A stretch of DNA of 64,000 bases from Bdellovibrionales bacterium (GTDB lineage: Bacteria; Bdellovibrionota; UBA1018; CAIMNF01), in NCBI GenBank assembly GCA_947502835.1, contig CANNBJ010000004.1, positions 295,669 through 359,668 on the forward strand, given 5' to 3'. The translations under genes and the position numbers were made by a program. Position 1 is the stretch's first letter; each line of letters starts with the position of its first letter. This document shows, piece by piece, positions 8,021-29,748 of this stretch. The notes below the pieces were generated by a model, which was not told the origin of the DNA, searched no databases, and was given only the letters and a program-made list of their open reading frames with translations.

Positions 8021-8054
8021 GGCATCGGCAAGTGCAAGTCCTGTGCGAGGGGGA

Positions 8055-8546: not shown

Positions 8547-8557
8547 GGCTTTGTCTC

Positions 8558-11802: not shown

Positions 11803-11831
11803 GTGGGAAAATCCTCACTTAGGATTAGATC

Positions 11832-13300: not shown

Positions 13301-14485
13301 TCACTCCCGGGTTGCCGCCTTCACAATTGCATCGAGCAGTGTCCAGTCGTCTTTGAAGTTTTTCGTGTCGCGCCCGAGCCCCTCCGGATCAAAAGCCTGT
13401 CTCCAGATGAAATCAGGATAGCTCGAGTCCTCGGCCCACTCTCCCCCGATGATGCGGTCTGCGGCGTTCAGCTCGAGAACATAGCGGTAGGTTGCCATTC
13501 CATAGTGCTGATTGCCGGGGCCAAGAGGTTCGTACCGGGGGGAAGCTGTCCGATCGTTTTCTTCGCCCGGTCCATGAGCGGAATAGAGTTCGTTGACGTA
13601 CCTGATGGTGGTTTCAAAGGAAAACTCCCGCACGGTTCCAGGCGTTTTGTCTTTTGAGAGGTCCCTGGTCTTCACTCCCGTGATTTTTGATTCAAAGCCG
13701 ACAACCGGATGATTCCACACCTGAAGCCCCGGGTCGCGGTCGATCGCGATTCCGCGTTTTCGAATCCCGATCTCGTTCGTCAGCGCGATGTGGAAGGCAC
13801 CCGCGTTGATGTCACTGCACCCGCCCGTTGCGTTCAGAAGAATGCGATCCTTCGCCCTGCACGCACGACCGATGTAGCCGTGAAAGGGATTCTTCGAAGG
13901 CTCGACTGTGCGGTCAAGATACGAGTAGTAGTAGGCAAGAAGGCCCTTGATGTCGCTTGAGCCGAAGGGAACCCGGATTCCATTTACAGGGGACGTGAAC
14001 AGGATGTTCTTCGGTTCATCGAAATGAAGCGAGGCATGGGTCCAGCCGTTGCAAAGACCCCGCCACCAATCACGATCGCCCGGGTTCTTCTTCCGGAAGA
14101 ACTTTGCCGTCGGAAAATCGAGTTTCCCGCGGACGATGTCGAATTTTTCGGCAGGAGACAGCAGGTTCAGTTGGCCCGGAGCCATCCGGTACACGGTTTC
14201 CGGTTTCGGCAGATCATAGTCCTTGAACTTGAAGGCAAGTGCCGGAACCTGCCAGCGATCCGCGATGTAGCCGCGTGTGGCAGGCCAATAGGAGTCGGAC
14301 CAGCCCTTGCGGGAGGAATCGAGGTTTCCAGAGAGGGGAAGAGAATTCAGGCTGTACACATAGTCAAGCTCAAGGTTCTTCGGATCATTCGCCTCATTCC
14401 AGTTTCGATCGGCGAGGGAGGTGAGCGGGATCAGGGTGAGTAGGATTCCGGGTGCAAAGAGATTTTTGAGAGTCCTGATTTTCAT
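13301..14485 (-). CDS. secreted hypothetical protein (394 aa)
   Basis: Signal peptide MKIRTLKNLFAPGILLTLIPLTSLA. No motif recognised with confidence; a GLCNGWTHAS segment is noted. Confidence 0.5.
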   Translation of the reverse strand: MKIRTLKNLFAPGILLTLIPLTSLADRNWNEANDPKNLELDYVYSLNSLPLSGNLDSSRKGWSDSYWPATRGYIADRWQVPALAFKFKDYDLPKPETVYRMAPGQLNLLSPAEKFDIVRGKLDFPTAKFFRKKNPGDRDWWRGLCNGWTHASLHFDEPKNILFTSPVNGIRVPFGSSDIKGLLAYYYSYLDRTVEPSKNPFHGYIGRACRAKDRILLNATGGCSDINAGAFHIALTNEIGIRKRGIAIDRDPGLQVWNHPVVGFESKITGVKTRDLSKDKTPGTVREFSFETTIRYVNELYSAHGPGEENDRTASPRYEPLGPGNQHYGMATYRYVLELNAADRIIGGEWAEDSSYPDFIWRQAFDPEGLGRDTKNFKDDWTLLDAIVKAATRE

Positions 14486-14552
14486 GGCTGGAAACCTAAG
14501 AGCATTTCAGGTATTTGTCAATGAACCTTGTTTACAAAAAAAGGAAACCAAA

Positions 14553-15323
14553 GTGACCGCATTTCTTGAGTATTTTTCAGAGCTTTATGGCCCGAGGTGG
14601 CCCGATCTGCATGCGGCTCTCGGCCGGGAGCCGGTGCGCGTCGATCGGGAATGCTTTGGAGGATTTGCCCGGTATACCCTCGACTCCGCATCCGTTCGCG
14701 CGGCCCAAGCTCTCCGGGTGAGACCGGGGGATCGGGTGCTTGATCTTTGTGCCGCCCCGGGCGGGAAGGCGCTCGTGTTGCTCGAGTCTCTCGAAGGCAA
14801 GGGCGGTCTCATCGCAAATGAGTTGTCGTCTGATCGAAGGAGACGGCTCAAGGACGTGATTGCAACCCATGTTCCACCGGGAGATCAGGCATTGGTCGAG
14901 GTGACCGGGTTTGATGGAAATCTTTTCGGATTGAAACAAAAGTCCGCATTCGACCGTGTGCTGCTGGATGCCCCTTGTTCGAGCGAGCGCCACATGATGG
15001 AGGATGATCCAAGCGTGCCCGAGTGGAAGGAGTCGCGCACCCGTCAGCTCGCGATGCGGCAGTATTCGTTGATTTGTTCTGCGATTCTAGCGCTCAAGGA
15101 AGGCGGCACGCTTGTTTACTCCACGTGCTCGATTTCTCCCCTCGAGAATGACGGAGTAATCGAGAGGGTTCTAAAGAAAAAAGGAGATCGGGTGGAACTT
15201 GATCCCGACACGGATGACCTGTCGGATCTTGAGCACACCCGATGTGGCTTTCAGATTTTCCCTGATCGGGCCAAGGGAGCTGGTCCGATTTACATTGCGA
15301 GGCTCAAGGTGAAGACTTGCTGA
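14553..15323 (+). CDS. NOL1/NOP2/Sun-family RNA cytosine-C5 methyltransferase (RsmB/RsmF-like); GTG start chosen downstream of the convergent neighbour
   Basis: SAM-binding motif LDLCAAPGGKA. Motif LLDAPCSSER around the catalytic Cys. TCSISPLENDGVI near the C-terminus. The ORF track start at 14421 overlaps the upstream gene; an RBS aaggaaacc precedes GTG at 14553. Confidence 0.7.
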   Translation: MTAFLEYFSELYGPRWPDLHAALGREPVRVDRECFGGFARYTLDSASVRAAQALRVRPGDRVLDLCAAPGGKALVLLESLEGKGGLIANELSSDRRRRLKDVIATHVPPGDQALVEVTGFDGNLFGLKQKSAFDRVLLDAPCSSERHMMEDDPSVPEWKESRTRQLAMRQYSLICSAILALKEGGTLVYSTCSISPLENDGVIERVLKKKGDRVELDPDTDDLSDLEHTRCGFQIFPDRAKGAGPIYIARLKVKTC

Positions 15324-15350: not shown

Positions 15351-16376
15351 CTAGCTGCGAATTGTTTGAGAGTTTCGGATTCGCATGCTGATCTGTTTTC
15401 CGAGCTCGGCAAATGAGTTCATATTCAGAGGAAACTCAAGGAGCACATGAGTGAAGCTCAAGAATGCAAGCCACCTGAGTCCAAGGGAATAGCTCAACGA
15501 GTACAGGACCACCGAGGCCACCCAAAGAAGAACCACGAGCAGGATGCGTGCCCTGGAAACTTGATGCCAGCGGATGACTTCCGTTTTACTGAACCAGTTC
15601 AAGTAGTGATACATATAGGAAAATGAAATTAAGCGCATCAGCATGATTCCTGTCGCTGAACCAAAGAGTTGCTCGTTCACCTGCACAAGGGTGGGTTGGT
15701 TCGAGAAATCGGCATCAAAAACCCTTTGCAGAATGCTCAAGTTGAGTTGAAAAAAGCCGTCTCCTTCGCTGAAGTATGAATCCTTCCCGTACTCAGTTGC
15801 AGCGATGAACTGATGACCCTGAAAAAGCGTGCAAAGAAGCACAGGGCAGAGAAGAAAGACCGCAAATGAGATCATCCCCGACTTGCTTTTGGATTTGAGT
15901 GCGCCCACTAAAATAAAGACGCCTGTAAAAACAAATACGTGAATGAGAGTGGGGAGAAGAATGCTGGAAAGCCAAGTCAGGGTGTTGTCTTGATGATCGG
16001 TGAAAATCAGATTCGAAAAAAGGATCAGGAATACAAAGCCCAACGCTTTCATGGATGCATTGCGCACGAAAGCCATGAGTGCTGAGCCCGTAAATGCAAA
16101 GAAGATTGCCTTTGTGCTCATCAGAAGATGAAACCCCAGAGTGTCCAAAGTGATCAGGACCCCGACAGCCACCAAAACCAGGAAATCGTGTTTGGACTTC
16201 GTAAAATACTTCCGATCGTGAAGCCAGCTGATTTCGGTTAAGTAATGGAGCGGTCCCAAAACGGCATAGGCAAATAAAAACAATTCAAGAGGCATGATGA
16301 ACGCTGCAATCATGCTCAGGAGCATCATTCCTATGTTCAGTTGATTGATTCGGTCTAAATGAATGGGAGTACTCAC
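15351..16376 (-). CDS. polytopic membrane protein of unknown function, lying in a low-GC segment
   Basis: 341 aa with 8 or more hydrophobic helices. AT-richer than its surroundings. Confidence 0.5.
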   Translation of the reverse strand: MSTPIHLDRINQLNIGMMLLSMIAAFIMPLELFLFAYAVLGPLHYLTEISWLHDRKYFTKSKHDFLVLVAVGVLITLDTLGFHLLMSTKAIFFAFTGSALMAFVRNASMKALGFVFLILFSNLIFTDHQDNTLTWLSSILLPTLIHVFVFTGVFILVGALKSKSKSGMISFAVFLLCPVLLCTLFQGHQFIAATEYGKDSYFSEGDGFFQLNLSILQRVFDADFSNQPTLVQVNEQLFGSATGIMLMRLISFSYMYHYLNWFSKTEVIRWHQVSRARILLVVLLWVASVVLYSLSYSLGLRWLAFLSFTHVLLEFPLNMNSFAELGKQISMRIRNSQTIRS

Positions 16377-16515: not shown

Positions 16516-16935
16516 TTGAACATGAATCAGTTTTTCGTTGCATTGGGGGTACTGGTCGGAACAGCGTCTTTCGCCTGTCCATTGGGTTCCAATTGGTTGC
16601 CGCCCGGGGAGGTATTGGAGTCAGGATGTACGATCATTGCCGCCGGCAATGGTCAAGGGGGGTTTAGCCCGCCTTGGGCGCCTGGCACACTTTATTGCCC
16701 TCAAAGCGTCATGAGTGGTTCCGTCTCTTGTTATTATGTGAAAAAGTGCACGATTCCTGGAGTGGACTATTGCCTGAGAAAGGTTTTTCATCAAAACGGG
16801 ACGATTCAGGTTACCATGAATACACCGCTGGTTTGTCCGAGCGGATTGCACAAAGCGGTGGACAGGTCGGGCAGCACCGACAAATGCATCCGGATAACTG
16901 AAGTTAAGGCATCAGAAGGCGCTGCGATCCGATGA
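16516..16935 (+). CDS. small Cys-rich secreted protein (10 Cys in 139 aa)
   Basis: Signal peptide MNMNQFFVALGVLVGTASFA followed by regularly spaced Cys residues. Confidence 0.45.
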   Translation: MNMNQFFVALGVLVGTASFACPLGSNWLPPGEVLESGCTIIAAGNGQGGFSPPWAPGTLYCPQSVMSGSVSCYYVKKCTIPGVDYCLRKVFHQNGTIQVTMNTPLVCPSGLHKAVDRSGSTDKCIRITEVKASEGAAIR

Positions 16936-16942
16936 CGAGAGT

Positions 16943-17854
16943 CTAAAACCCGATCGAAAAACTGCCACCCACAATCGAAGTGTCGATCGAAGGCGACCAG
17001 AGCACCGACTGGACATAGCCGCCAAAGGAAACAAACAAAGGCGAAACATCGGGCGACCAGGTCAGGGTTCCGCGCGCGGTATCGGGAAGCGCCTCTCCAA
17101 GATGAAACAGGCCGTTTGGATTCGGTGAGCGATGCTCGACATTGAAACTTGCGGAGGCCCTGATACTCACGGTTCGTGAGATGTCGTACCCAAGATTCGG
17201 GCCGAAAGAAAAGAAAAGTGTCTGGCGGTCCGTGAATCCCTGAGGTAGGGGATCGTTGTAGAATTGTGGATTCAGAAACCATCCGAAGCCAAAATGAAAC
17301 GGGCTTTGCGTATTCACGTTCCAGCTCTGCTGAAGGATCAGGGATGTGATTTTTGCAGCATTGATCGAGGCAGGTCCGATCGGAAGGCTGAAGGATGCAC
17401 TCGTGAACACGAACCATCCGTCCACCCGGATCAGGTTCGGAAGGTCGAAGTACAGATACGGATCATACCACTCCGAGGTGCGTCCCCGGATGAATCCCGT
17501 GACGCCCATCACACCATCCGAGACATTCTGGACAATGTCGGCGCCCACTCCGATCTGAAGATCCTCGGTAGCCTGGTATCCGAACTTGAGCGAGTGGAAC
17601 AACTGAACCGGTGCCACATCCGGAATGAACACGTTGTAGGTTTCGATCGGACTGCCATTCAAGCGCGGTCCCATGTAGGAGACCGCGTAGGACCCATGGA
17701 AGTTCCGGAGGATTTCCCCGATCGAGGGAATGGTACCCGGAGCCTTGAAGGTTTGAAGATTGATGTCAGGTCTGTTTGAGCCACGTTGGGCCTGTCCCTG
17801 TGCGTCGAGGGAGACAAAAAGAGCGATCAGAGTGAGGAAAATCCGGGTCCGCAT
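16943..17854 (-). CDS. outer-membrane beta-barrel protein
   Basis: Signal peptide MRTRIFLTLIALFVSLDAQGQA. Alternating amphipathic strands. C-terminal ...GGSFSIGF ends in Phe. Confidence 0.6.
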   Translation of the reverse strand: MRTRIFLTLIALFVSLDAQGQAQRGSNRPDINLQTFKAPGTIPSIGEILRNFHGSYAVSYMGPRLNGSPIETYNVFIPDVAPVQLFHSLKFGYQATEDLQIGVGADIVQNVSDGVMGVTGFIRGRTSEWYDPYLYFDLPNLIRVDGWFVFTSASFSLPIGPASINAAKITSLILQQSWNVNTQSPFHFGFGWFLNPQFYNDPLPQGFTDRQTLFFSFGPNLGYDISRTVSIRASASFNVEHRSPNPNGLFHLGEALPDTARGTLTWSPDVSPLFVSFGGYVQSVLWSPSIDTSIVGGSFSIGF

Positions 17855-17866
17855 CGGACCCGGATC

Positions 17867-20059
17867 TTAAATGAGGTTTGCCTGTTTTAGGAGAGAATCC
17901 CTCTCGGCAAAAAAACTTTCAAGACCATCGATCAGGCGTTTTCGTTGAGATGCCTCGATGTCGTTCTTCAGGTGCTCTGCCAGTTCCTTCCGGATTGAGG
18001 TGAACTCGAGCACCATCATGTGGAAGAGCGCTTCATACTGGGAATCCATCTGGCGGAAGGAGGCGTTTGCCGTGAGTTTCGACCGCGCAAGGCCCTTTTT
18101 GAACTGCAGGGAGGTCAGCGACATTTCCTCGCGTTTTGTCGAGTAGAGCGACTGAAGCAGGTGAACGGTGTTCCGCACTGACCAGTTGTACATTTGAAGT
18201 CCGGAATTCGAAGCCTCTTGAGCATGGTTCTGAAGAAGGTACAAGATCTCCCACTGGCGCTTCATGTAGGTGCGAAGCTCAGCGGTATCCATCGAGTTGC
18301 GGCGCTCAAAAAGCTTAGAGTTGTTTTTCAAGCGGGCAAGGACGCTGCCGCCGGCCTTGAACTCGGAGTCGAATTTTTTGGCAAGAGCCATGATCCGCTC
18401 GTGTCCCGCGGGAAGCGCAAGACCTTTGGTGCGGTTTGCAAGGGTGGAGGTCATGTCGCGAAGAAGGATGAAGGAGCGACCCACATAATGATCCATCTGG
18501 GTTTGTTCGCCGGTTTCATCCATCATCGTGTACGGATGGTCCAGAATGAAGCGGATGTTCCGGTCCCAAAGATAAAGCTGCACTTCCTCTGCGCGCAGTT
18601 TCTCTTTCTCCGCAAAGCGAATGAACGCCGGATCATACTCCTTTTCATTGGCTTTCAGGAAGTTCAGGAACTGGAGATAGCGTTCGGTCTCAAGCCAGGT
18701 GCTCTCGACGATGAGAGGCCAGTTGAGCTGGGTTTCCATCTGCTCGAGTCGCCCAAACCGGGGCGCAATTTCGAGATTTCCCTCATAGGCGATCTGCATC
18801 GCCTTGAATTGACTCATCCGATCCTCCCAGCTCTGGGAGGCGACTTCACGTCGATCCGAGGAGAGGGGCATGCCGGAAACCGGGGTGTTGGCGGAAGGGC
18901 CTGATCCGCTTGCGGGAGCCGGCACCGAGGCGGGTGTTTCGTGTTTCTTTTCGGTCGATTCCGGAGTGGGTGTCACAGCGTCCACGGAGGCGCCACTCAC
19001 GGCTGCTCCACCGATCAGGGTTTTTACTTTATCGGTGGTTTCGATGTACGCGGAGCGAACTTTTCCGACCGCCCACATCGCGTGGGGGTTCATGGGTTGA
19101 GTGATGAAAAAGAAGGTGAAGGGGCTGTAAATGGCCAATGCAACGGAGTAGCCCATGTTCCCGCGAACGACCTTGAAGAACCAACGGACCGGGTCAAGCA
19201 ACACGCGCTCCACGAGTCCCAGCAAATTGCTGAGCGGACGAACCTTGAAGCGGGAAAGCGCGTTTCGGGCATCGGATGCGAGAAGGGGAAGCGTGTAACT
19301 CACGAAGCGGCTCCTGTGCGCGCGCTTTTTGGTCGCGATCAGGGTTTTTCGTTCTCCCTTGATCCTTGCAAAAATGGTCTGACGCTCGCGCCACGTGTAT
19401 ACCGGATCGCGCTCGAGGGTGAGAAGAGACTCGTTCAAACGCAGGATGGCGGGATCCCGCGCGCGAAGGTTGAAGGAGAGGGCCGATCCGCGTGTGAGTT
19501 CGAGGCGTTTCAGGATTCGCTCGATGGTGTGGAGGAGTGTCGTGTTGGCAGTCCCCTCCATGGTCTTCGGGTACTCGACCGATGCGACATTGTAGAGAAA
19601 GTTCACGATCGGGCAGGCGGTCTCAAACACAAGGGAAGGGATGATTTCAAAGCTTCGTGTGCTCGGGCCTTCGCTGAACGCGAACCGGCCGTCGGCGGTG
19701 AAGTGGTGGGTGATCCAGGAAGAGGATCCGTCCAGCATCAACGCTTGCACCATCCAGTGCCCGGAGGTGGTGAGTCCCACCCTGACATACGCGAGCATTT
19801 TCGCGCCCAGGGAATAATTGAAGCCTGCAGTGCCCTCGCTCCTCATCACGGGGAGTGCGTGGATCTGTGAAGAAACCAGAGCCGTTCCTCCGTCAAGGGC
19901 GATTGCGGAAATCATTTCCTCGAAGGTGCGTGCGGGGCGCACGAGAAAGCCTCTCAGCTCCTCCATGCATTGCTCCCTCCGGGAGGGGAGGTTGACCAGT
20001 CGGGGGGGCTGGGTCTGGCTCACGGGTGCGGTTCCTGGTGTGGTGCCGTTCATCTTCAA
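17867..20059 (-). CDS. 730-aa hypothetical protein with a central hydrophobic segment; cotranscribed downstream of the protein-glutaminase-like gene
   Basis: Its stop overlaps the start of the upstream gene by 4 bp (20056-20059). Central segment MGYSVALAIYSPFTFFFI looks like a TM helix. C-terminal half looks helical/coiled-coil. Confidence 0.5.
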   Translation of the reverse strand: MKMNGTTPGTAPVSQTQPPRLVNLPSRREQCMEELRGFLVRPARTFEEMISAIALDGGTALVSSQIHALPVMRSEGTAGFNYSLGAKMLAYVRVGLTTSGHWMVQALMLDGSSSWITHHFTADGRFAFSEGPSTRSFEIIPSLVFETACPIVNFLYNVASVEYPKTMEGTANTTLLHTIERILKRLELTRGSALSFNLRARDPAILRLNESLLTLERDPVYTWRERQTIFARIKGERKTLIATKKRAHRSRFVSYTLPLLASDARNALSRFKVRPLSNLLGLVERVLLDPVRWFFKVVRGNMGYSVALAIYSPFTFFFITQPMNPHAMWAVGKVRSAYIETTDKVKTLIGGAAVSGASVDAVTPTPESTEKKHETPASVPAPASGSGPSANTPVSGMPLSSDRREVASQSWEDRMSQFKAMQIAYEGNLEIAPRFGRLEQMETQLNWPLIVESTWLETERYLQFLNFLKANEKEYDPAFIRFAEKEKLRAEEVQLYLWDRNIRFILDHPYTMMDETGEQTQMDHYVGRSFILLRDMTSTLANRTKGLALPAGHERIMALAKKFDSEFKAGGSVLARLKNNSKLFERRNSMDTAELRTYMKRQWEILYLLQNHAQEASNSGLQMYNWSVRNTVHLLQSLYSTKREEMSLTSLQFKKGLARSKLTANASFRQMDSQYEALFHMMVLEFTSIRKELAEHLKNDIEASQRKRLIDGLESFFAERDSLLKQANLI

Positions 20060-20799
20060 TCCCCCTTCAGGCCTTTCATCATGTTCTCAAGGTCGCCCGG
20101 TCTCCACGAGGTTCGAATGCGAAGGCCCGGGTCGTACCAGTTCGATCCGATGGACCCCGATTGTCCCGTGCGATCGCGCTCGAAATCGATCGGCGAGTAA
20201 TTGAACATCGGTGTTTTCATCACGAAGCAGTAATTGAGCTCCTGGTGGTTGAGGTACTCTTCATAGGTCTCGATCAGGGGGCATTCGGTTTTCGGAAAAA
20301 TGAAGTAGCGGGTCCACTGCGCAATGCTGATCGGACGGGAGTCAAAGCGCTTGATGTCCTCGGGACGCACCCATGAGGGAGGTGAAACAAACACCGGATC
20401 GAACACGCGCTCTTCGACCGAACCGTCGGCAAGTCGCACCGGAATGAGGGGGGCGACATGAAAGGACCATTGGTAGTCGAACTCGCGGCGGTAGCGATCC
20501 GTGAAGAACAAAAAGACCTTCATGCTTCGGATCCCGATGTTGCTGAACAGCTCATGCGACCAGTAGTGGGCCCGCTGGTAGCAACCCGATCTTCGGGTGA
20601 AGATCGAGGTGGGCATCATGTTGTAAAGGTTCTTCGCGCTCTCTTCGCTTGCAAGAAGTGAAGGTTGAAAGCCCCGGATCGACCGGTTGGCCGAGTAGGG
20701 TACCGGGAGTTCCCGGTCGGCGAGCGTCACTTGCGCGCGGGCCTGGCTCAGGAGCGAGAGGGTCAGGAGGGAGGCTGTGAGAAGGGGCTTCAACATCAT
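20056..20799 (-). CDS. secreted protein-glutamine glutaminase-like (transglutaminase-fold Cys-His-Asp) enzyme
   Basis: Signal peptide MMLKPLLTASLLTLSLLSQARAQ. Motifs SGCYQRAHYW, WSFHVAPLI and ERVFDPVFVSPP parallel the GCYARAH / WSYHVAILV / IIDPSLFS triad region I recall for Chryseobacterium protein-glutaminase. Confidence 0.55.
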   Translation of the reverse strand: MMLKPLLTASLLTLSLLSQARAQVTLADRELPVPYSANRSIRGFQPSLLASEESAKNLYNMMPTSIFTRRSGCYQRAHYWSHELFSNIGIRSMKVFLFFTDRYRREFDYQWSFHVAPLIPVRLADGSVEERVFDPVFVSPPSWVRPEDIKRFDSRPISIAQWTRYFIFPKTECPLIETYEEYLNHQELNYCFVMKTPMFNYSPIDFERDRTGQSGSIGSNWYDPGLRIRTSWRPGDLENMMKGLKGD

Positions 20800-20974
20800 G
20801 AGGAGTGGATTAAACTGAAACCGTGTAATGTGTCAATAAATTTTGTTTAATTAAATGGAAATGATTCATTCTGGATTTTTTCCGGGTCTTCGGGCATGGT
20901 CCGGGATCCGGGCGGATGGGGGAGAAAAAGATTGATTAAAAAGGTCAAATCTTCTACTCTCCCGAAAGCGCAAC

Positions 20975-23900
20975 TTGCGAGTAAACCACACGGGAGATTT
21001 TGCACGGGTGTTGGCCAATCGATTGCTTCCTGTCAGATCCAAATTGAAACCCAAGGCGAGTTCCTCGCGCCCGGTGGATCGGGCCGCATACGAACCGAAC
21101 AAGGGCTTCATTGGAAAATACGAGGTCAGTGTCGCGAACTATCTTTTCCGCTCGAAGGGGCGAAGCGGTTACCTGCATTCGCAGTCGCTTGTGGATGCCC
21201 TCCTCGGGCGCACCATTCAGGATCATCACCAGTCGAGCCAGCGCCTCACCCGGTTTCTGAAAAAGCGTGATCTCACGTTTCAGAAAACCGACAAGGACGG
21301 GGTGTACCGGATCTTCACCGTTCCTGTGACGACCTCCGTGGTTCCTCTTCCAAAGTCGGTCTTCAACTCCATCGAACACGCGGCACAGGTGCTGATGGTT
21401 TCGCTCAGGATGGTGCTTCAGAGCATTTACGGGGCAAAGTCGATCCGGGAGAGCGAGTTTGTGAACTCCCTGCCGGCTGAAGTCCGCCAGGCCTTTCTCG
21501 ATGCAACCGAGAACTCGCCCCACTACATTCCCCAACTGCACCACGAGAACATGAAGTCCTACCCGTTCCTCGACAATGTCGGACTCGATCTGGTCTTGGT
21601 CGAGGAGTATTTCCAGAATCGGGGGAAGTTGAGCCAGATGGTGCTTCAGGGGCGGGCACATGAGCTTCCGGAGCTGCCATTCAAGGTTCTTGAGCTGAAT
21701 GCCGGCTCGCCCTCGGGAGCATCCAACAATTCAAACATTCTCGAGGGGATCCTGCGCGAAGACCCTGAGGTCCTTGATGCTCTCGGACCTGTGTTTCCGA
21801 ACGATCATTTCCGCGTGTTGCGCGAAACCTATCGATCCTTGGGTGAGTCCTGGACCGGACGCAAGGATGGAATTCAGGTGCTTCTGCCGCCGGGCGGGGC
21901 CAATGGAGCCGCTCCCGAGATCCACCAGCTCGCGGCCTATTCGGGACTCGTGTACTGCGATCCGGGCCAATTGTTTCAGGATCCGGAAGGGTGGATCCGG
22001 CTTCGCACGGTGGATGGCACCGATCCGGTCGTCACCTCGATTTATTCACGGGTGAACAGCGACAGTGCGCTCTTTGATCGCGAAAAGGGCGTATTGCTTC
22101 GCGACCCTGAAAGCGGCGAATCCATTTATTGCGTCGATGTGCTGAAGCCCTGGAAGTCCTCCGACCCCGAGTTTCTCCAGGATGACAAAGGCAACCCGGT
22201 TCCACTCGAGTCCGATTACGCCATCCCGGGCGCCCTGGATGCCATCGTTCATCGCAAACTTTACATGGGAGGTTTGAACCGACTTCTCGACAACAAGATC
22301 ATTCTCGCGACACTTACGGATTTCGCCCCCGAGTATTTCAGAAGCGAGCTGGAAACGCTCGGGCTTCGCATCGGTTCCAATCGGATCACTCCTCCGGAGT
22401 GCCTCCCCTCCAAGGAGGATTCTCTCGACATCATTGAACGGAATCCCGAAGACTGGGTGATCAAGGCCCCGAATCTCTCGGGCGGAACCGGGGTCCACAT
22501 CCTGATGACCCTGGACGAAAAAAAGCAACGCGAAGTCATCAAGGAGGCCCGTCGCAATCCCGAGCAGTTCGCCTACCAGAAGGTTGTGAAGATCGCGCGG
22601 ATTCCGGTGGCGGTCCGAAGCGGGGGAAAAGCCGGGTTCCGGTTTGCGAATCTTGCCGCCGACATCCGCATGTGGGTGTTTTTCGGCGGCAACGACACGC
22701 TTCCGAGGCTCACGCACAATGCCCTTGTCCGGTATGCGCCAAAAGAAAAAGGCCCGATGAGTTCGATCGTGAACACTTCGAAGGGCGGCGGATACGCTCC
22801 TTTCGTTGTGGTCGATGATCTTGGTGATCCCTCTGCGATTCCCGCGCGGGAACTTGCAACTCCCCATGAGCCCGCTCCGTTTCAGTGCGCACTGCCTGCC
22901 TTTGTCGGGGCCCAGCTCGTGCAAGTTGCGAACATCATCCATGAACTCAGAAAGCTCGTGCGGCAACAGAATCCCGAGACCCATCGGGTTTCAGGGTACC
23001 TCTACTCCCTCAAGCTCCAGGTTCGTGAAATCACCTCCTTCATCCACCCCCGTTGCATGGAGACGATCTACAGCATGATCGAACTCATCGAGAAGCGGAT
23101 CGATCGGAAGGCCATTGCCAGCTATTACGCCCGGATGAACCAGGATCAGGCGCGGTTGGTGTCCTTGCTCCAGTCCCTCGACAACGTCCTTGATGAGGAT
23201 GTGTACATGGTGCTCGACGAGATGAATGTCCTGAACCAGGACATCGTGAATCGCGGGTACAGCTATGAAATGAAGCGGAGCGATCTCTTCAATCTCGGGC
23301 ACCTGAGTTTTCTCCTTCGCCACAAGATCAGCATGCATCCGGAAGAACGCCGGAATCTGAACCGCATTCGGGCCCTGATCAAGGGAATGATTCTTGCCCG
23401 CTTTCCCGCGCGCGGGCTTGCGTTCCTGCTTCGCCAGCGTTTTGAGTCGCTCCTCGACCAGTTTTGTGAGCTTGCCACCAAGCGCCTTCGCGACTCGGTT
23501 CATGCCAGGGGGTTCGCCACACTCTTTGACGGGTCGGTTGAGCAAAGTCAAACCCTGTACCGGGAAACCTTCGTGATCGCGCACGAGGGCCAAGCGCCCC
23601 GATCGGCAACCGAGTGGGAATTGAAGAACGAGAAGCGTCTCGTGGATTCGGACTTCATCGATCCGGAGATCCGCGCCATACGGAGTGAGTGGCTCCGTGT
23701 GATCGAGGAAGCAAAATCGGTGTCGAAGGAAAAACGCGGCAACTTCATTGCCGAGGCGCGAAAGAGGCATTTTTCAAGACATCCAAGGCTCACCGAACTT
23801 CAGAGCATCATCAATCGGCGGGAGAATTCGGACGTTCACTCGCTCATTGCGCTCATGAGCGTGCTCCCGTACGCAGCCTACAATCTTCGTCAGTATGCGA

Positions 23901-24790
23901 TTGATGAGGGAGTCTCCTTTGTCGATCTGTTTTGCGACACCCTGACCCCGAACCGGATCTCGATACTCGATCGGCATGCCCGCAGCCGTGAAAAACTCAA
24001 TCTCGATCAGTTTGCGGGTGAGTGTTTTGCGCGCAAGAAAACCCCGCACGGACTCATTTCGGATGGCGATCGATTCATGTGGATTTCAAAGGAGCAGAGT
24101 CCGCTCGTACAGCTCTATACGATCGGACACGAGTTGATTCATTCCTTCCAGATCGGCGAGGTGATGGAGAACGAGGCTGTGGCACGACGAGCGGGCTCGG
24201 TGGAGTTCGCAGGGTTTCTGAACCATTACGGAAACTTTCTTTCGCTTGCGGCACACACCCTTGAAAAACAACAGTCCGATGTCGCAGCTTATCGGCTTCC
24301 TCTGTACGGACTCGCGGATCGGATCGTGACCCAATTTTTCTCTCCCGTGATCGCGGACATCCGGGAAGGCCTTGCGGGCAGTACCGGCACCTATCACAAG
24401 AGGCTCGACAAGTATGGATCCCTCTTCGGATACATGATGCCGGTGTCCAATGTGGTTCGGGTGAAGGCACTCCGCGAGGTGGTTCCCGCGCTTGAGAATG
24501 CGAAGAATATTCTTTTTGCCAAGGAGTGCGGTCTTGAGATTCCGTTTGATGAGGTCCGGTCCGCATTGCCGACCGCAAACCGCGTGCAGGCGAACCGGTA
24601 CCGCGCGCTGATCACCGGTGCTGCGCAAAGCTGGAAACAGGACTTTGAGGCGCTCCGGGTGATTGCCTCGCATCAGTACTACGGAGTGATGTTCCATCGC
24701 GCAGAGGATGACCGCGAGAACCTTACGATCGAGTCTGATCCCGCGGCGATTTACCTGAACAACGGCTACAACCAGACGGAACAGCAGTAA
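20975..24790 (+). CDS. 1271-aa fusion protein: circularly permuted ATP-grasp (type 2) amidoligase domain, alpha-E-like helical domain, and C-terminal region with HExxH zincin motif; non-ATG start (TTG at 20975) likely
   Basis: CP-ATP-grasp signature stretches WVIKAPNLSGGTGVHILMT (about 22457) and MWVFFGGNDTLPRLTHNALVRY...SSIVNTSKGGGYAPFVVVDD (about 22670-22820). Long helical region at 22.9-23.9 kb. TIGHELIHSF at about 24121-24150. Confidence 0.6.
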   Translation: MRVNHTGDFARVLANRLLPVRSKLKPKASSSRPVDRAAYEPNKGFIGKYEVSVANYLFRSKGRSGYLHSQSLVDALLGRTIQDHHQSSQRLTRFLKKRDLTFQKTDKDGVYRIFTVPVTTSVVPLPKSVFNSIEHAAQVLMVSLRMVLQSIYGAKSIRESEFVNSLPAEVRQAFLDATENSPHYIPQLHHENMKSYPFLDNVGLDLVLVEEYFQNRGKLSQMVLQGRAHELPELPFKVLELNAGSPSGASNNSNILEGILREDPEVLDALGPVFPNDHFRVLRETYRSLGESWTGRKDGIQVLLPPGGANGAAPEIHQLAAYSGLVYCDPGQLFQDPEGWIRLRTVDGTDPVVTSIYSRVNSDSALFDREKGVLLRDPESGESIYCVDVLKPWKSSDPEFLQDDKGNPVPLESDYAIPGALDAIVHRKLYMGGLNRLLDNKIILATLTDFAPEYFRSELETLGLRIGSNRITPPECLPSKEDSLDIIERNPEDWVIKAPNLSGGTGVHILMTLDEKKQREVIKEARRNPEQFAYQKVVKIARIPVAVRSGGKAGFRFANLAADIRMWVFFGGNDTLPRLTHNALVRYAPKEKGPMSSIVNTSKGGGYAPFVVVDDLGDPSAIPARELATPHEPAPFQCALPAFVGAQLVQVANIIHELRKLVRQQNPETHRVSGYLYSLKLQVREITSFIHPRCMETIYSMIELIEKRIDRKAIASYYARMNQDQARLVSLLQSLDNVLDEDVYMVLDEMNVLNQDIVNRGYSYEMKRSDLFNLGHLSFLLRHKISMHPEERRNLNRIRALIKGMILARFPARGLAFLLRQRFESLLDQFCELATKRLRDSVHARGFATLFDGSVEQSQTLYRETFVIAHEGQAPRSATEWELKNEKRLVDSDFIDPEIRAIRSEWLRVIEEAKSVSKEKRGNFIAEARKRHFSRHPRLTELQSIINRRENSDVHSLIALMSVLPYAAYNLRQYAIDEGVSFVDLFCDTLTPNRISILDRHARSREKLNLDQFAGECFARKKTPHGLISDGDRFMWISKEQSPLVQLYTIGHELIHSFQIGEVMENEAVARRAGSVEFAGFLNHYGNFLSLAAHTLEKQQSDVAAYRLPLYGLADRIVTQFFSPVIADIREGLAGSTGTYHKRLDKYGSLFGYMMPVSNVVRVKALREVVPALENAKNILFAKECGLEIPFDEVRSALPTANRVQANRYRALITGAAQSWKQDFEALRVIASHQYYGVMFHRAEDDRENLTIESDPAAIYLNNGYNQTEQQ

Positions 24791-24795
24791 ACCAT

Positions 24796-24842
24796 TCCAC
24801 TATTTTTGCAGTGGATTGCTCCACTGTTGCTGCAGTGGCTTA
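24796..24842. terminator. putative bidirectional terminator between the convergent ATP-grasp fusion gene and glmS, built of alternating CCACTG/CAGTGG half-sites
   Basis: Sequence ccactatttttgcagtggattgctccactgttgctgcagtggcttactccactg can fold into several alternative 6-bp hairpins. Sits between two stop codons. Confidence 0.35.
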
Positions 24843-26699
24843 CTCCACTGTGACCGACTTCGCGAGATTCCTTGGCTTGTCGATGTTCCGGCCCAGGGCC
24901 TTCGCACAACCATAGGCAAGAAGCTGCAGCGGGATCACAGACAGGATCGGCTGCGTCCCCCAGGATGACTGGGGAAGGCCGATGAATTCATTTGAGAGGC
25001 GTTTCGCCTCTTCATCGCCTTCGGTTCCGATCGTGATGATGTGTCCGCCGCGCGCGCGGATCTCCTCAAGGTTGGAGATGGTTTTTGAATACCACTCGTC
25101 TTTCGGCGCAAGCGTGATCACGGTGACTTTCGGGTCAATGTAGGCGATCGGTCCGTGTTTGAGTTCTCCTGCCGCGAAGCCTTCGGCGGGAAGGTAGGTG
25201 AGTTCCTTGAATTTGAGCGCGCCTTCGAGAGCGATCGGGTACATGGTTCCGCGGCCCACGAATAAAATGATGCGCTGATCCTTGAGCGTCTCGCCCATCT
25301 TCATGAACGTTTCGCTTTGCGAGAGCACTTGGTCGAGGTCCTGCGGCAATCGGGCAAGTCCGGTGAAGGACGCTTGTACCGACTCCTTCCCGTCCTGGAG
25401 TCCGCGAAGTCGTGCCACATCCAGCGCAAGTGCGCACAAGATGGTCAGTTGCGAAGTGAATGCCTTGGTGGAGGCGACCCCGATTTCGGGTCCCGCCTTC
25501 GTGGGATATTGAAAGCCGCTTTCGCGCGCGATAGTGGAGTTCGGGACGTTGCAGATCGAGAAGGTCGAAACGCCGGCCTGGTTTGCAAGTCTCAGGGCTG
25601 CAAGTGTATCCGCGGTTTCGCCGGATTGCGAGATCACGCCCACCACGGTTCCGGGCTCGAACACGGGGCTTCGGTAACGGAACTCGGAGGCAATATCGAT
25701 CTGACAATCAAGCCGTGCCCAACGCTCGAAAAAGTATTTTGCCGCCATTGCAGCATGGCTGCTGGTTCCGCAGGCAATGAGATAGAGGCGTTTCACGTTT
25801 TTCCAAAGGACTTCATGGGCTTTTTGATGGTCCCAGATGAACGAGCTCTTTTGATCGACAGGGAGGCGGCCCGTGAGCGTGTCGGCCACCACCAGGGGTT
25901 GTTGGAAGATCTCTTTTAACATGAAGCTCTCAAAGCCGGCTTTCTCAACTTTGTCTGCGGTCCAATCGATCTTCTCGAACGAAAGACCTTTGTTGCTTGC
26001 ACTGGTGAGCTTGACCCCGGTCTCATCCGCTACGAAGATTTCACCCTTGGGCAAGAAGCAGACTTCATTGTGATACGGAACAATCGCTTGGAGGTCGCTT
26101 GCAATCAGGGCCCCGGTTTTCAAGTTCGAGACCACAAGAGGGGCGCCGTTCTGGATTCCAAAAATCTTTCCCGGAATGGACTGAGACATGAGGACAATCG
26201 CATAGTGACCCTCCACCTCGGTCATCGCTTGTTTCATGGCATTGAGAAGTATGGTTTCGGCGGTCGCACCTTCTGATTTTTTTGCGATCTCCCTGCGTCT
26301 GAATTCGATGAGTTGGGCGAAAACTTCTGTGTCGGTTTGCGAGGAGAACTTCACGCCTTCCCGGCTCAGCATGGTTTTGATCTCGGAGTAGTTTTCAATG
26401 ATGCCATTGTGAACGAGGACGATGTCGCCTGCCCGGTGGGGGTGGGCATTGGTTTCGTTTGGCGCCCCATGGGTTGCCCAACGGGTGTGCGCAATTCCTT
26501 GGGTTTCCGTTTTGCCGCACTCAAGACTTGCATCGACAAGTCCTTGCACGGGACCCGCATTGCGCTTGATCTCGAAATTCCCCTTCGAGAAAAGCGCAAA
26601 GCCCGCGGAGTCATAGCCACGGTATTCAAGACGCTTCAGGCCATCCAAAAGAATGGGGAGAGCTTGGTTTTTTCCGACGTATCCGACGATTCCACACAT
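24840..26699 (-). CDS. glmS: glutamine--fructose-6-phosphate aminotransferase (isomerizing)
   Basis: N-terminal MCGIVGYVG with nucleophilic Cys2. Two SIS domains. C-terminal ...KSVTVE. 619 aa. Confidence 0.9.
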   Translation of the reverse strand: MCGIVGYVGKNQALPILLDGLKRLEYRGYDSAGFALFSKGNFEIKRNAGPVQGLVDASLECGKTETQGIAHTRWATHGAPNETNAHPHRAGDIVLVHNGIIENYSEIKTMLSREGVKFSSQTDTEVFAQLIEFRRREIAKKSEGATAETILLNAMKQAMTEVEGHYAIVLMSQSIPGKIFGIQNGAPLVVSNLKTGALIASDLQAIVPYHNEVCFLPKGEIFVADETGVKLTSASNKGLSFEKIDWTADKVEKAGFESFMLKEIFQQPLVVADTLTGRLPVDQKSSFIWDHQKAHEVLWKNVKRLYLIACGTSSHAAMAAKYFFERWARLDCQIDIASEFRYRSPVFEPGTVVGVISQSGETADTLAALRLANQAGVSTFSICNVPNSTIARESGFQYPTKAGPEIGVASTKAFTSQLTILCALALDVARLRGLQDGKESVQASFTGLARLPQDLDQVLSQSETFMKMGETLKDQRIILFVGRGTMYPIALEGALKFKELTYLPAEGFAAGELKHGPIAYIDPKVTVITLAPKDEWYSKTISNLEEIRARGGHIITIGTEGDEEAKRLSNEFIGLPQSSWGTQPILSVIPLQLLAYGCAKALGRNIDKPRNLAKSVTVE

Positions 26700-27029: not shown

Positions 27030-29648
27030 TCAGCTTTCTGCAAGGAGACTCTTCAGGTCGCCTGCGGTAAGCGCCCCTTCTCCGAGTGCCAGTTTCTGTG
27101 CTTGTAGCTCTCCCATTCTCTCCTCGATCGAACCCTCGACCCTGAATCGATGAATCGTGACGGGCTTTTCCTGACCCATCCGATAGGCGCGATCCTCGGC
27201 CTGGAGTTCGACAAAGGGATTCCACCAGGGCTCACAGAAAATCACATGGCTTGCGCGGGTGAGATTGAGTCCGACCCCTCCGGCATGGAGCGAAAGCAGA
27301 AACACACTTGGGCGGTCTGAATCCTGAAACCTGCTGGTGACATCGCCTCTGTCTTTGGTTGAGCCATCGAGCCGTTGATACGGGAGGGAGTGCGCGCTCA
27401 CCCGTGTCTCGAGCAAATCAAGGAATGCGGTCCATTGGGAGTAGACGAGTACGGAATGTCCCGCATCCAGAAGGTCGGAGACCAGCGCAAGGATTGCCTC
27501 GAGTTTGGTGGAAGACGGAACAGAGCCGGTTCCGGCTGCCTGCTTGGCGCCGTTTTCTCCGGCGAAAAGCCCCTCGTGATTGCAGGCCTGACGTGCGCGC
27601 AGGAGTACCTCAAAGAGCGTGAGCGGCGACAGGGGTTCTCCCGCCTCCAGGATGCGAGCAAGGACCTCCTGTTTTGCCGCATCGAACACGGAGCGATAAA
27701 GCTTTGATTCGCCTTCCGTAAAGGAAACCGAATGCACAAGGTGGGTCTTGGGAGGGAGTTCTGTCAGGACCTCGGCTTTGGTCCGTCGCAAAAAGAAAGG
27801 TCTGCTGGTTTTCAGGTCGAGAGCTTCTTCATCATCAAAAAGCCCCGGAGAAACGAACTGAAACAAACTCCAAAGATCCCGCATGCGGTTTTGAATCGGC
27901 GTACCGGTAAGGGCGAGTCTGAAATCGGCAGTGAGGGTGCTTGTTGCGATCGCCGCCCGGGTTTCGGGATTCCGGATGATGTGAGCCTCGTCGAGCACCG
28001 CGATTTTCCAATGGATGCGCGCGAACCGTTCGGCCTCGGTTCCGAGCAGAGAGTAGGAAGTAAGAACCACATCGGCCTTGTCGTCCAATGTGCGCCCGGC
28101 CCCGTGGTATATGGATACTTTGAGCTCGGGACGGAACCGTGCCGCTTCTGCTTTCCAGTTTTGAAGAAGCGAGACCGGAACCACGATCAGAGAGGGGGAT
28201 TCGAGCACTGCAAGTGTCTGGAGGGTTTTTCCAAGCCCCATGTCGTCAGCCAGAATTGCGCCTCCAAGGCGCATCCATCGATCAAAGAGCCAGTTCACCC
28301 CCTCGTGTTGATAGGGCCGAAGCTTTCCCTGAAGTGATTTTGGAATCGCCGGCAGAAAGGAACCCTGTCCGGGGGGATTCGGGGATGTTCTTGCGAGCGA
28401 GGCCAGAAGCGCTCCGGTTTTTTGCCTCGTCTTCGGATTTCGCTCCCTCAGGCGGAGGAGTTTCAGGATGCTCCCGGATTCTGAAATCGCATCCTGGAGG
28501 GGGAGCTTGAACTCCCCAGCAAGCCAGCTTGAAAGTGCCGACTCGATTTCCGGAAACCGGTGCGAGTTTTTTGTGGCGTGGAGGCGAAAGAGTTCGGAGG
28601 CGGCGAGTGTTCTGGGGTGCCCCGGGTTCAGCTGAAACTGCTCGCGAGCAACATGGCTGAGTTCAGCCTCCTTTTTCGGATCGCGGATCGTGAGTGCACC
28701 GGCGGGCGCCTCATAGTGGATCCTGAGGGTTGCCGAAAATTGGTCCTCTGAAATCGGATGAAGGGTCAATTTCAATTCCGGTTCCACTTCGATGACAGAC
28801 GGGAAAAGTTCCTTGAGGTCCGGAAATTTCATCAAGAGAGAGGTTTCAAGATCGAGGCGTGAAAATCTCTTCGGAACCGCTGCAGGCTCATCAAAGCCGT
28901 AACCCAAAACGCCGTTTTCGATCCAAAGGCCTCCTTGAAGAATCTCAACTCCGGGTTCGCGAGTGAATTCAAGGGTCCATTCGTCTTTGGAGATCTCTCG
29001 AAGCGCGGGTTTGGGGCGTCGGGGAAGACGCTGGACCCGGAGAGTGGGGACGGAGGGGTGCCCGACCACCGGAAGCGGCGGCAGGTCGGTGAGTGCCAGA
29101 AGGACTTCCCGCCATTCGGGAGAGTCCGACGAATAGAGGCCATCAATTTTCAGGTCAACCGGTGAAAGAGCTGGAAGCGGACCCTCAAGCCTCCCGCTTT
29201 GTACGCCTCCCACCCATGCCACCAGTGAGGAGGGCAGGGGGATCTCCTCGTTCCCCTTTTTTAACGCGCGCTTTAGCTGCACTCGAGCAGGCTTTCCAGA
29301 ATCGTTTCCGAGATAAATCCATGAGTACTCGAGTCGCACGCTCGCGCTTTGGCTTTCCTCCGACTTCGAGTCCAGTGTTCCGTTCTCAAGGGCAAGAGCT
29401 GCGGCAACAATGTGGTGACAAGGTTCCACTTTGCTGCCACAATTGCAGTGGGCATCCTGATCTTCTGGCCAGAGGGTGACCTCGAATGCCAGGATCCGCT
29501 CTGCAGTGGTCACTTTGAAACGGAGTTCCTCCGAGACTCCTTCGGGGGAGGTTTTCCTGATTGAATTCAAAACGCGCGATGCTTGCACCCCCTTCGACCA
29601 GACTCCCGGCAGACACTCTTCCTTCAGGCTTTCGATAAATTTTTTCAT
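27030..29648 (-). CDS. SNF2-family helicase/ATPase with N-terminal SWIM zinc finger; start set at internal Met44 to avoid overlapping the divergent phoH2 start
   Basis: SWIM CxC...CxH: AHCNCGSKVEPCHHI. SNF2 motifs LADDMGLGKT (Walker A-like), DEAH box in VLDEAHIIRN, and helicase C motifs. ORF track lists 27030..29777. Confidence 0.75.
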   Translation of the reverse strand: MKKFIESLKEECLPGVWSKGVQASRVLNSIRKTSPEGVSEELRFKVTTAERILAFEVTLWPEDQDAHCNCGSKVEPCHHIVAAALALENGTLDSKSEESQSASVRLEYSWIYLGNDSGKPARVQLKRALKKGNEEIPLPSSLVAWVGGVQSGRLEGPLPALSPVDLKIDGLYSSDSPEWREVLLALTDLPPLPVVGHPSVPTLRVQRLPRRPKPALREISKDEWTLEFTREPGVEILQGGLWIENGVLGYGFDEPAAVPKRFSRLDLETSLLMKFPDLKELFPSVIEVEPELKLTLHPISEDQFSATLRIHYEAPAGALTIRDPKKEAELSHVAREQFQLNPGHPRTLAASELFRLHATKNSHRFPEIESALSSWLAGEFKLPLQDAISESGSILKLLRLRERNPKTRQKTGALLASLARTSPNPPGQGSFLPAIPKSLQGKLRPYQHEGVNWLFDRWMRLGGAILADDMGLGKTLQTLAVLESPSLIVVPVSLLQNWKAEAARFRPELKVSIYHGAGRTLDDKADVVLTSYSLLGTEAERFARIHWKIAVLDEAHIIRNPETRAAIATSTLTADFRLALTGTPIQNRMRDLWSLFQFVSPGLFDDEEALDLKTSRPFFLRRTKAEVLTELPPKTHLVHSVSFTEGESKLYRSVFDAAKQEVLARILEAGEPLSPLTLFEVLLRARQACNHEGLFAGENGAKQAAGTGSVPSSTKLEAILALVSDLLDAGHSVLVYSQWTAFLDLLETRVSAHSLPYQRLDGSTKDRGDVTSRFQDSDRPSVFLLSLHAGGVGLNLTRASHVIFCEPWWNPFVELQAEDRAYRMGQEKPVTIHRFRVEGSIEERMGELQAQKLALGEGALTAGDLKSLLAES

Positions 29649-29748
29649 CGTGATGTTTTTGACTCGCGCGCCACACATCCTATGATACTTTTTAGGCAAG
29701 AGGGAGCGCTTTTTCACAACTCTCTCGAAGCCGGAAAAGGAGCACATC

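Follow-up and report, generated by a model that had tools for sequence, protein, structure and literature searches.

A circularly permuted ATP-grasp ligase fused to helical and HExxH domains, and its candidate envelope partners, in Bdellovibrionota

What does a single polypeptide that unites an ATP-grasp ligase, a long helical region and an HExxH region do for the bacteria that encode it, and which of the genes around it belong to the same system? The question is raised by a 64,000-nucleotide (nt) stretch of DNA from a Bdellovibrionales bacterium (contig CANNBJ010000004.1; this whole stretch is called the window here, and positions follow its numbering), in which a first-pass annotation, made from the sequence alone, had singled out a 1271-amino-acid (aa) open reading frame (ORF) and its divergently transcribed neighbours. 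In the program-made ORF table of the window, from which ORFs and coordinates were taken, the ORFs of 1271, 247, 730 and 303 aa lie at the coordinates and on the strands at which they had been annotated, and every motif quoted for them is present in the translations (that is, APNLSGGTGVHI, MWVFFGG...TSKGGGYAPFVV, TIGHELIH and GCYQRAH / WSFHVA / FDP). As had been read there, three parts are joined in the large protein, a circularly permuted (CP) type-2 ATP-grasp amidoligase, a long helical stretch and a region with HExxH, and we refer to this protein as the fusion protein. The features under discussion are the following.

20975–24790, plus strand: fusion protein ('big1271'), a 1271-aa ORF with a TTG start; some homologs are called ~33 aa shorter.
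21089–22819, plus strand: CP type-2 ATP-grasp amidoligase module of the fusion protein, ~aa 39–615, boundaries approximate.
22898–23929, plus strand: all-helical domain, ~aa 642–985, family-specific.
23942–24739, plus strand: HExxH domain, ~aa 990–1255, with three beta-strands, a long motif helix and further helices.
24128–24142, plus strand: HELIH motif, H1052–H1056, retained in the most divergent members of the family.
24767–24787, plus strand: C-terminal tail YNQTEQQ; family consensus (S/G)YNQTQQ(Q)n, with the last residue always Gln.
20800–20974, no strand assigned: AT-rich spacer of 175 bp from which the 247-aa gene and the fusion gene diverge.
20056–20799, minus strand: protein-glutaminase-like (PG-like) gene, 247 aa; triad C73, H114, D134; secreted; accessory member.
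17867–20059, minus strand: p730 gene, 730 aa, with the ATG at 20053 (the start used by homologs) as the likely start; obligate partner.
16943–17854, minus strand: outer-membrane-protein-like (OMP) gene, 303 aa, with a signal peptide and the C-terminus ...SFSIGF.
13301–14485, minus strand: TGase_elicitor-like gene, 394 aa, secreted.

Judged by sequence, the first ~615 residues of the fusion protein are a complete CP type-2 ATP-grasp ligase with intact catalytic motifs. The earlier claim of a CP ATP-grasp, which an empty hidden Markov model search would speak against, is borne out by a match of Pfam CP_ATPgrasp_2 (PF14403) above threshold (E=1.3e-14, 54.4 bits against a cutoff of 32) at aa 477–587, that is, at nt 22403–22735 and inside the 22.2–22.9 kb region that had been predicted; CP_ATPgrasp_1 also matches (E=1.1e-5, 25.1 bits against 23.1), and ATP-grasp Pfam matches above cutoff were obtained in 7 homologs too. 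In the Protein Data Bank (PDB), the fusion family matches 3N6X, itself a CP ATP-grasp, at E=3e-6; the ExN, K-x-x-x-SGG, R and NxSxGGG motifs coincide in the alignment, and sequence and profile searches with the whole family returned no other structure. The motifs stand in the permuted order (E240-x-N242, then K497...S502-G-G, R565 and N600-T-S-K-G-G-G), and these residues do not vary among 23 homologs of 50–88% identity. A profile–profile comparison (hhalign) of the N-terminal 615 residues of the family with seven canonical CP type-2 enzymes, which also served as the positive control for this type of work, gave a probability of 99.0 (E=4e-18) over 455 columns and template positions 25–482 of 482, and thus over the whole enzyme. 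Databases name members of the family 'circularly permuted type 2 ATP-grasp protein' or 'hypothetical', and one JGI record adds 'predicted Zn-dependent protease'.

Full-length homologs of the fusion protein (43–99% identity) were found in more than 100 metagenomic clusters and at 80 genome loci, which argues that the fusion is not a chance observation. The locus scan took one genome per species (tblastn, then jackhmmer on all ORFs of the 80 loci); the presence of the PG-like gene was counted over 81 loci, and linkage only over loci with enough flanking sequence. Nearly all loci are labelled Bdellovibrionota, including Bacteriovoracaceae, Halobacteriovoraceae, metagenome-assembled genomes (MAGs) of Bdellovibrionales/Oligoflexia, Bacteriovorax stolpii and the cultured Peredibacter sp. 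HCB2-198. Three loci (L004, L056 and L062) are labelled as Nitrosovibrio, Flavobacteriaceae and Nonlabens MAGs and encode proteins 45–70% identical to the Bdellovibrionota family; L004 and L056, which lie on longer contigs, keep the Bdellovibrionota gene order, and L062 comprises the ligase gene only. These deviating labels are probably MAG binning or labelling errors, and the full-length fusion family is found only in Bdellovibrionota. A literature search on the fused family, on CP ATP-grasp proteins in Bdellovibrionota and on PF14403/COG2308 found no paper on the fused family.

Which genes, then, belong with the fusion gene? The p730 gene adjoins it in 69 of 69 evaluable loci. In the 14 loci of the window's clade the two genes are divergent; in the other 55, p730 lies directly downstream on the same strand, at a median gap of 17 nt. 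The OMP gene comes after p730 in 59 of 61 evaluable loci, and the stop of the one frequently overlaps the start of the other. On the basis of this linkage, the conserved core consists of the fusion protein, p730 and the OMP, and the PG-like gene is accessory; transglutaminase-fold enzymes are frequent but dispensable. The expected co-occurrence of the 247-, 730- and 1271-aa genes therefore holds for the latter two and fails for the first, which is present in 22 of 81 loci at variable positions and in variable orientations and is not the conserved partner that it had been taken for. Of the 34 loci flanked by 8 kb or more on each side, 23 carry a TGase_elicitor-like gene, 8 a PG-like gene and 24 either of them. 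TGase_elicitor-like homologs in Bacteriovoracaceae lie in the same operon as the fusion gene, often two in tandem; one such operon encodes a fusion protein of 1253 aa, proteins of 739 and 313 aa and a TGase_elicitor protein of 532 aa, with gaps of 8, −4 and 126 nt. The TGase_elicitor-like gene belongs to the module and is the commoner transglutaminase-fold partner. In the window, 2 nt separate the stop of the 247-aa gene from the ATG of the 730-aa gene (20053), and 12 nt lie between the stop of the latter and the 303-aa start, so that these three minus-strand genes are tightly coupled; the TGase_elicitor-like gene lies ~2.5 kb past the OMP gene. The 20800–20974 spacer holds no strong sigma-70 consensus, and promoter and terminator scans were uninformative. 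At one Bacteriovoracaceae locus (L081, JBFWTE010000001.1), a response regulator and a HAMP/HisKA kinase are encoded at 7630–9712, directly upstream of the fusion gene and on the same strand.

The C-terminal 656 residues, which hold the helical and HExxH domains, pose a different problem. An AlphaFold2 model of this part, built with 58 sequences, is confident (predicted local distance difference test (pLDDT) 87.4; predicted template modelling score (pTM) 0.87) and runs from an all-helical region of ~345 residues through three short strands, a long HExxH helix and further helices to a disordered tail. The HExxH helix spans fragment residues 428–458 and comes directly after a three-stranded sheet with strands at 380–383, 400–405 and 417–423 (block-mean pLDDT 83–96), and one feature of the zincin layout, HExxH on a helix with a beta-strand before it, is thus present in the model. 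In the family alignment T1049, G1051, H1052, E1053, H1056, Q1059, E1067 and ALENAKN (1172–1178) are invariant, and TxGHExxHxxQ, E1067 and ALENAKN are unchanged even in the most divergent members. No relative of the module was detected: Pfam and NCBIfam gave no match to it in the window copy, permissive Pfam scans of the halves of the region were empty at E<=10, a PDB profile search found no match, and a Foldseek search of the model against the PDB found none at E<=0.001. A HMMER profile search of 1.84 billion cluster representatives returned 67 proteins, all of them fusions of 1170–1300 aa or fragments thereof, which indicates that, within this collection, the C-terminal module occurs only fused to this ligase.

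The helical region had been called alpha-E-like. Helical it is in the model, yet homology to Alpha-E (PF04168) is not supported: Pfam gave no match at E<=10 in the fusion protein (real Alpha-E proteins score E=2e-91), and hhalign against 12 verified Alpha-E proteins returned a probability of 0.2%. The 'ER' motif of Alpha-E (xRYxERAEN), present in 12 of 12 of these proteins, has no counterpart in the family alignment; the closest invariant pair there, R684-E685, has the two residues the other way round. The likeness that is left is one of position and of helical character.

For the HExxH domain, identification as a zincin-like metallopeptidase is plausible but unproven, from its sequence and its modelled fold. 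The part of the earlier proposal that stands is that the motif is present, invariant and placed on a helix after strands; a significant sequence or fold match to a peptidase was not obtained. When 12 homolog C-terminal fragments were scanned singly, DUF6782 (a Pfam family of putative metallopeptidases) was touched in 10, at 12–18 bits against a gathering score of 27 (best E=5e-4) and over ~55 of 241 profile positions, and Peptidase_M78 was matched in 2. These weak matches always cover the strand and HExxH helix at the same profile positions, ~55–112; in a control in which 29 p730 proteins were scanned likewise, no family appeared in more than three members. No family but DUF6782 recurs for the HExxH region in this way and in the same register; every match stays below the gathering score, and the window copy gives none at all. 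Against 33 Peptidase_Mx (PF15887) proteins, hhalign of the HExxH region gave a probability of 0.4%, and the motif contexts differ (HFRHExGHY in Peptidase_Mx, TIGHELIHxxQ in the fusion protein).

Of the two obligate partners, p730 begins with an alpha/beta domain, which is followed by an aromatic, hydrophobic and highly conserved segment (aa 301–335), a disordered linker rich in P/A/S/T and a C-terminal helical bundle of ~330 aa; permissive Pfam scans of its halves and PDB searches gave no match, and no transporter fold was found. hhalign found no similarity between either half of p730 and CP ATP-grasp, Alpha-E, Peptidase_Mx or the fusion protein's own helical domain, and we therefore rejected the idea that p730 is the missing Alpha-E. 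The 303-aa protein has no Pfam or PDB match and is predicted to be OMP-like from its signal peptide and its terminal Phe, a residue found in 48 of 54 family members. With p730 and the 656-aa C-terminal module, the system contains two protein families that have confident models and no detectable relatives.

The 247-aa protein, for which a signal peptide is predicted, matches Pfam Gln_deamidase_2 (PF18626; E=1.3e-10, 41.8 bits against a cutoff of 25) and the protein-glutaminase structure 2ZK9 (E=8e-5), with C73/H114/D134 aligned to C42/H83/D103; the Cys, His and Asp columns are kept in 26 of 26 PG-like homologs of the loci. Its score on the NCBIfam protein-glutaminase equivalog NF040782 is 28.6 bits against a cutoff of 250, and by sequence it is a distant relative of protein-glutaminase and not an ortholog. 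It shares the catalytic core, the triad and secretion with the protein-glutaminase of Chryseobacterium proteolyticum (2ZK9, 3A54), from which it differs in that ~70 residues align and in that its gene lies in an operon with p730 and the OMP. The first-pass description of a signal-peptide-bearing, protein-glutaminase-like Cys-His-Asp enzyme encoded in an operon with the 730-aa protein and the OMP can therefore be retained. The 394-aa protein, also with a predicted signal peptide, matches TGase_elicitor (PF16683; E=4.7e-25, 88.6 bits against 25) and PDB 3TW5 (E=4.6e-10). It resembles the Phytophthora GP42 transglutaminase elicitor (PF16683, 3TW5) over ~225 residues, and the GxCxGW Cys motif is conserved (49 of 50 TGase_elicitor-like homologs); it differs from GP42 in being bacterial and Sec-secreted and in belonging to a family that is operonic with an ATP-grasp module, and it is a putative enzyme, as read from its sequence. 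Signal peptides were found on all PG-like and TGase_elicitor-like proteins examined. Both of these accessory enzyme families act on peptide-bound Gln.

How far does such a module depart from known systems of this ligase class? Several bacterial phyla have CP type-2 ATP-grasp/Alpha-E/transglutaminase systems, and operons of the type COG2308-COG2307-COG1305, with or without Peptidase_Mx and Anbu, have been predicted to be peptide-ligation systems (Iyer et al. 2009, as relayed in PMC3495828 and PMC5666114) and are read as peptide ligation plus its reversal (PMC3495828, PMC5666114). We took canonical operons from annotated plasmid records and checked the identities by Pfam (Alpha-E, E=2e-91; Peptidase_Mx, E=2e-110; Transglut_core, PF01841). 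As the annotation had assumed, ligase, Alpha-E and transglutaminase, and sometimes a Zn-metallopeptidase, are separate genes there. Rhizobium, Paracoccus and Sphingomonas encode the ligase, then alpha-E, then the transglutaminase; Hymenobacter (L093) has the same three with a divergent 'putative zinc-binding metallopeptidase'; and the Caballeronia/Burkholderia plasmids (L089, L090) carry the ligase, alpha-E, a convergent metallopeptidase and a giant transglutaminase. In L089, L090 and L093 this metallopeptidase, next to ligase and alpha-E, is a Zn-ribbon plus Peptidase_Mx protein, so that a metallopeptidase partner is not new in itself; of the novelty that had been claimed for the combination, the fusion and the unrelated sequence remain new. 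The Acidithiobacillus caldus plasmid mpAca1.1 (L091) encodes a transglutaminase, the ligase, alpha-E and then a gene annotated as an OMP beta-barrel (4901–5965). With it there are two cases in which an OMP accompanies this class of ligases, and hhalign of our OMP family against the A. caldus one was negative (0.4%).

The Bdellovibrionota module shares with these operons the ligase family (Pfam above cutoff, hhalign 99%), the functional order of ligase, helical protein and peptidase-type function, with the helical domain at the position of Alpha-E, and the presence of transglutaminase-fold enzymes nearby. It differs in that a single polypeptide holds the ligase, helical and HExxH parts, in that the latter two have no detectable homology to canonical Alpha-E or Peptidase_Mx, in that its transglutaminase-fold partners are secreted TGase_elicitor or Gln_deamidase_2 proteins whereas the canonical partner is a Transglut_core protein, and in that it adds p730, the OMP and a Gln-terminal tail and is limited to Bdellovibrionota. 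Two system-level features of the canonical type, Alpha-E homology and a Transglut_core partner, are accordingly absent. In its workings the module would resemble the CP ATP-grasp/Alpha-E/transglutaminase(/Peptidase_Mx) theme, from which it has probably arisen as a fused, strongly diverged and lineage-specific variant; it is not categorically new as a kind and is apparently wired to the cell envelope.

The tail just mentioned was, like the TGase_elicitor-like gene, absent from the first-pass annotation. At least two terminal Gln residues are present in 70 of 70 intact C-termini of the genome loci, in runs of 2–8 (the one exception is a contig-end artefact), and the most divergent members end in ..TQSQ or ..SQTQ; no general tail of this kind is found on canonical ligase, Alpha-E or Peptidase_Mx proteins. 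The tail is disordered in the AlphaFold2 model. The run has a median length of 6 where a transglutaminase or glutaminase gene is nearby and of 2 where there is none, a difference that is confounded by phylogeny. In Pup-Dop-PafA as in RimK and TTL, the ligase is an ATP-dependent carboxylate–amine ligase that acts at a protein C-terminus, and Pup ends in Gln, which is deamidated to Glu before ligation, with Dop as the deamidase and PafA as the ligase. PafA and Dop have a glutamine-synthetase fold and not an ATP-grasp fold, and the likeness to Pup-Dop-PafA and to RimK / TTL is one of mechanism only, with no homology claimed. Here, in contrast to Pup-Dop-PafA, the enzyme bears the Gln tail itself and the deamidase-like protein is a secreted one.

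For the function of the module, we tentatively favour a composite model in which a ligase/peptidase is coupled to the envelope. The ligase would activate a carboxylate as an acyl-phosphate and couple it to an amine of its substrate, a peptide or a protein, and the fused HExxH domain would act as a zincin-type peptidase that trims, releases or reverses the ligation product, standing in for the separate transglutaminase-like peptidase or Peptidase_Mx of canonical operons; the helical domain would take the place of the Alpha-E scaffold. The N-terminal domain of p730 may anchor the fusion enzyme at the inner membrane, and the conserved hydrophobic segment and the long helical C-terminal domain of p730 may bridge the distance to the OMP. 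The product or substrate would thereby be coupled to the envelope, where the Gln-directed secreted enzymes would act.

Several observations weigh against this model. The ligase and the secreted Gln-directed enzymes are predicted to occupy different compartments, no signal peptide having been found on the fusion protein and both transglutaminase-fold enzymes having one. The zincin assignment draws on matches below threshold, and for a third metal ligand there are only candidates, the invariant Glu residues E1067, E1168 and E1174; the hhalign result for Alpha-E, given above, likewise speaks against a scaffold of common descent. The hydrophobic segment of p730 is moderately hydrophobic (Kyte-Doolittle ~1.4), and its insertion into a membrane is therefore something we infer. 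In 10 of the 34 well-flanked loci, mostly of Halobacteriovoraceae, no transglutaminase-fold gene lies near the module, and our literature search found no CP type-2 ATP-grasp enzyme whose substrate had been defined by experiment. The module may serve as an entry point to an uncharacterized class of ligases in which ligase and putative peptidase share one polypeptide: p730 and the OMP, with which it is strictly co-inherited, direct attention to the cell envelope, it is linked to two enzyme families of known chemistry, and it carries a conspicuous and invariant Gln terminus. As the module is present in the cultured Peredibacter sp. HCB2-198 and in Bacteriovorax stolpii, the predictions are directly testable.

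The same 10 loci, which lack both enzyme families, fit an alternative, namely that the three-gene core alone is a unit without any Gln chemistry, that the secreted enzymes, being abundant in these bacteria, merely lie nearby and that the HExxH domain is a structural or regulatory remnant. The variable positions and orientations of the PG-like gene and the lack of a significant peptidase match are in line with this. It has to contend, however, with TGase_elicitor-like genes that follow the OMP gene on the same strand with gaps of ~40–130 nt in many Bacteriovoracaceae loci, with the PG-like gene of the window, which is translationally coupled to p730 across its 2-nt gap, and with HExxH and flanking residues that are invariant throughout the family, which would be unexpected for a remnant. 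We consider this alternative unlikely, although it deserves to be kept in mind.

Could the Gln tail instead be the substrate? If synthesis were self-primed, the ATP-grasp part would extend or use its own C-terminal Gln tail and the HExxH domain would cleave the product off, after which the Gln-rich product would pass through p730 and the OMP and be cross-linked or deamidated outside. The tail is universal in intact proteins and, being disordered in the model, would be accessible; both accessory families, placed by Pfam and PDB matches and by what is known of them, have peptide-bound Gln as their target, and the runs are longer near such genes. Yet this last correlation carries the phylogenetic confounding already noted, nothing indicates that the tail reaches either active site, p730 has no transporter fold, the conserved core includes no ABC or other energizing component, and the QQ end is kept in loci without a transglutaminase or glutaminase gene. 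We regard self-primed synthesis with export as quite improbable. A particular form of it, in which the tail is the working end, the ligase priming on its own or a sister C-terminus, the fused peptidase releasing the product and p730 and the OMP delivering it to the surface enzymes, is in our view slightly more doubtful still; if true, it would amount to a ribosome-independent, self-primed Gln-peptide pathway of Bdellovibrio-like bacteria, similar to Pup/Dop/PafA or RimK and built from unrelated parts.

The first-pass proposal itself was a cycle of tagging at Gln/Glu side chains or at the C-terminus, in which the ligase writes a tag and the PG-like enzyme erases or prepares it on the same substrate. 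A pairing of this ligase with a transglutaminase fold is indeed the canonical theme, the PG-like triad is intact in all 26 homologs, and the gene lies divergently upstream of the ligase gene in two distant clades (the window's clade and a Bacteriovoracaceae subclade), a recurrence that argues against pure chance. Against it stand the loci that lack the PG-like gene (59 of 81, and 26 of the 34 with at least 8 kb on both sides), the fact that the canonical partners are Transglut_core proteins and not Gln_deamidase_2, and the low score of the 247-aa protein on the equivalog model. With a signal peptide on both transglutaminase-fold enzymes and none on the ligase, a simple tag and de-tag pairing is hard to fit, and we hold it to be slightly less probable than self-primed synthesis. 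Trans-envelope signalling, in which the OMP and p730 would sense an external cue (for example, prey contact) and regulate the cytoplasmic ligase/peptidase in a TonB- or anti-sigma-like relay, is the least probable of all, as it can appeal to a gene set with an OMP, a possible single-membrane-segment protein and a cytoplasmic enzyme, to the two-component system directly upstream in one Bacteriovoracaceae locus and to named loci from known predator genera (Bacteriovorax, Peredibacter) and their families, but is speculation from architecture, with no TonB box, plug, anti-sigma domain or Pfam match behind it. Searches of PHROGs and PADLOC were both empty, and phage-derived and defence-system readings were therefore dropped.

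Around the module, the window carries the following genes, of which six are ordinary flanking genes and two lie between the OMP and rRNA methyltransferase genes.

6491–8020, minus strand: Mg-chelatase-like YifB/ComM, ordinary flanking gene.
8558–10216, plus strand: ComEC (Competence and metallo-beta-lactamase), ordinary flanking gene.
11832–13292, plus strand: PMT_2 glycosyltransferase, ordinary flanking gene.
14421–15323, plus strand: RsmB/F-type methyltransferase, ordinary flanking gene.
15351–16376, minus strand: 341-aa protein with six hydrophobic segments, no Pfam match.
16516–16935, plus strand: 139-aa Cys-rich protein with a signal- or lipoprotein-like N-terminus, no Pfam match.
24840–26699, minus strand: GlmS, ordinary flanking gene unrelated to the module.
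27030–29777, minus strand: SWIM-SNF2 helicase, ordinary flanking gene unrelated to the module.

Three further ORFs, of 882 aa (3846–6494, plus strand), 537 aa (10189–11802, minus strand) and 256 aa (11799–12569, minus strand), have no Pfam family at E<=0.001. In the jackhmmer searches over the locus ORFs, the 341-aa protein was found in the window only and the 139-aa protein only in locus L002, and neither gene is conserved with the module. Likewise, glmS and the methyltransferase gene adjoin the module only in the window's clade.

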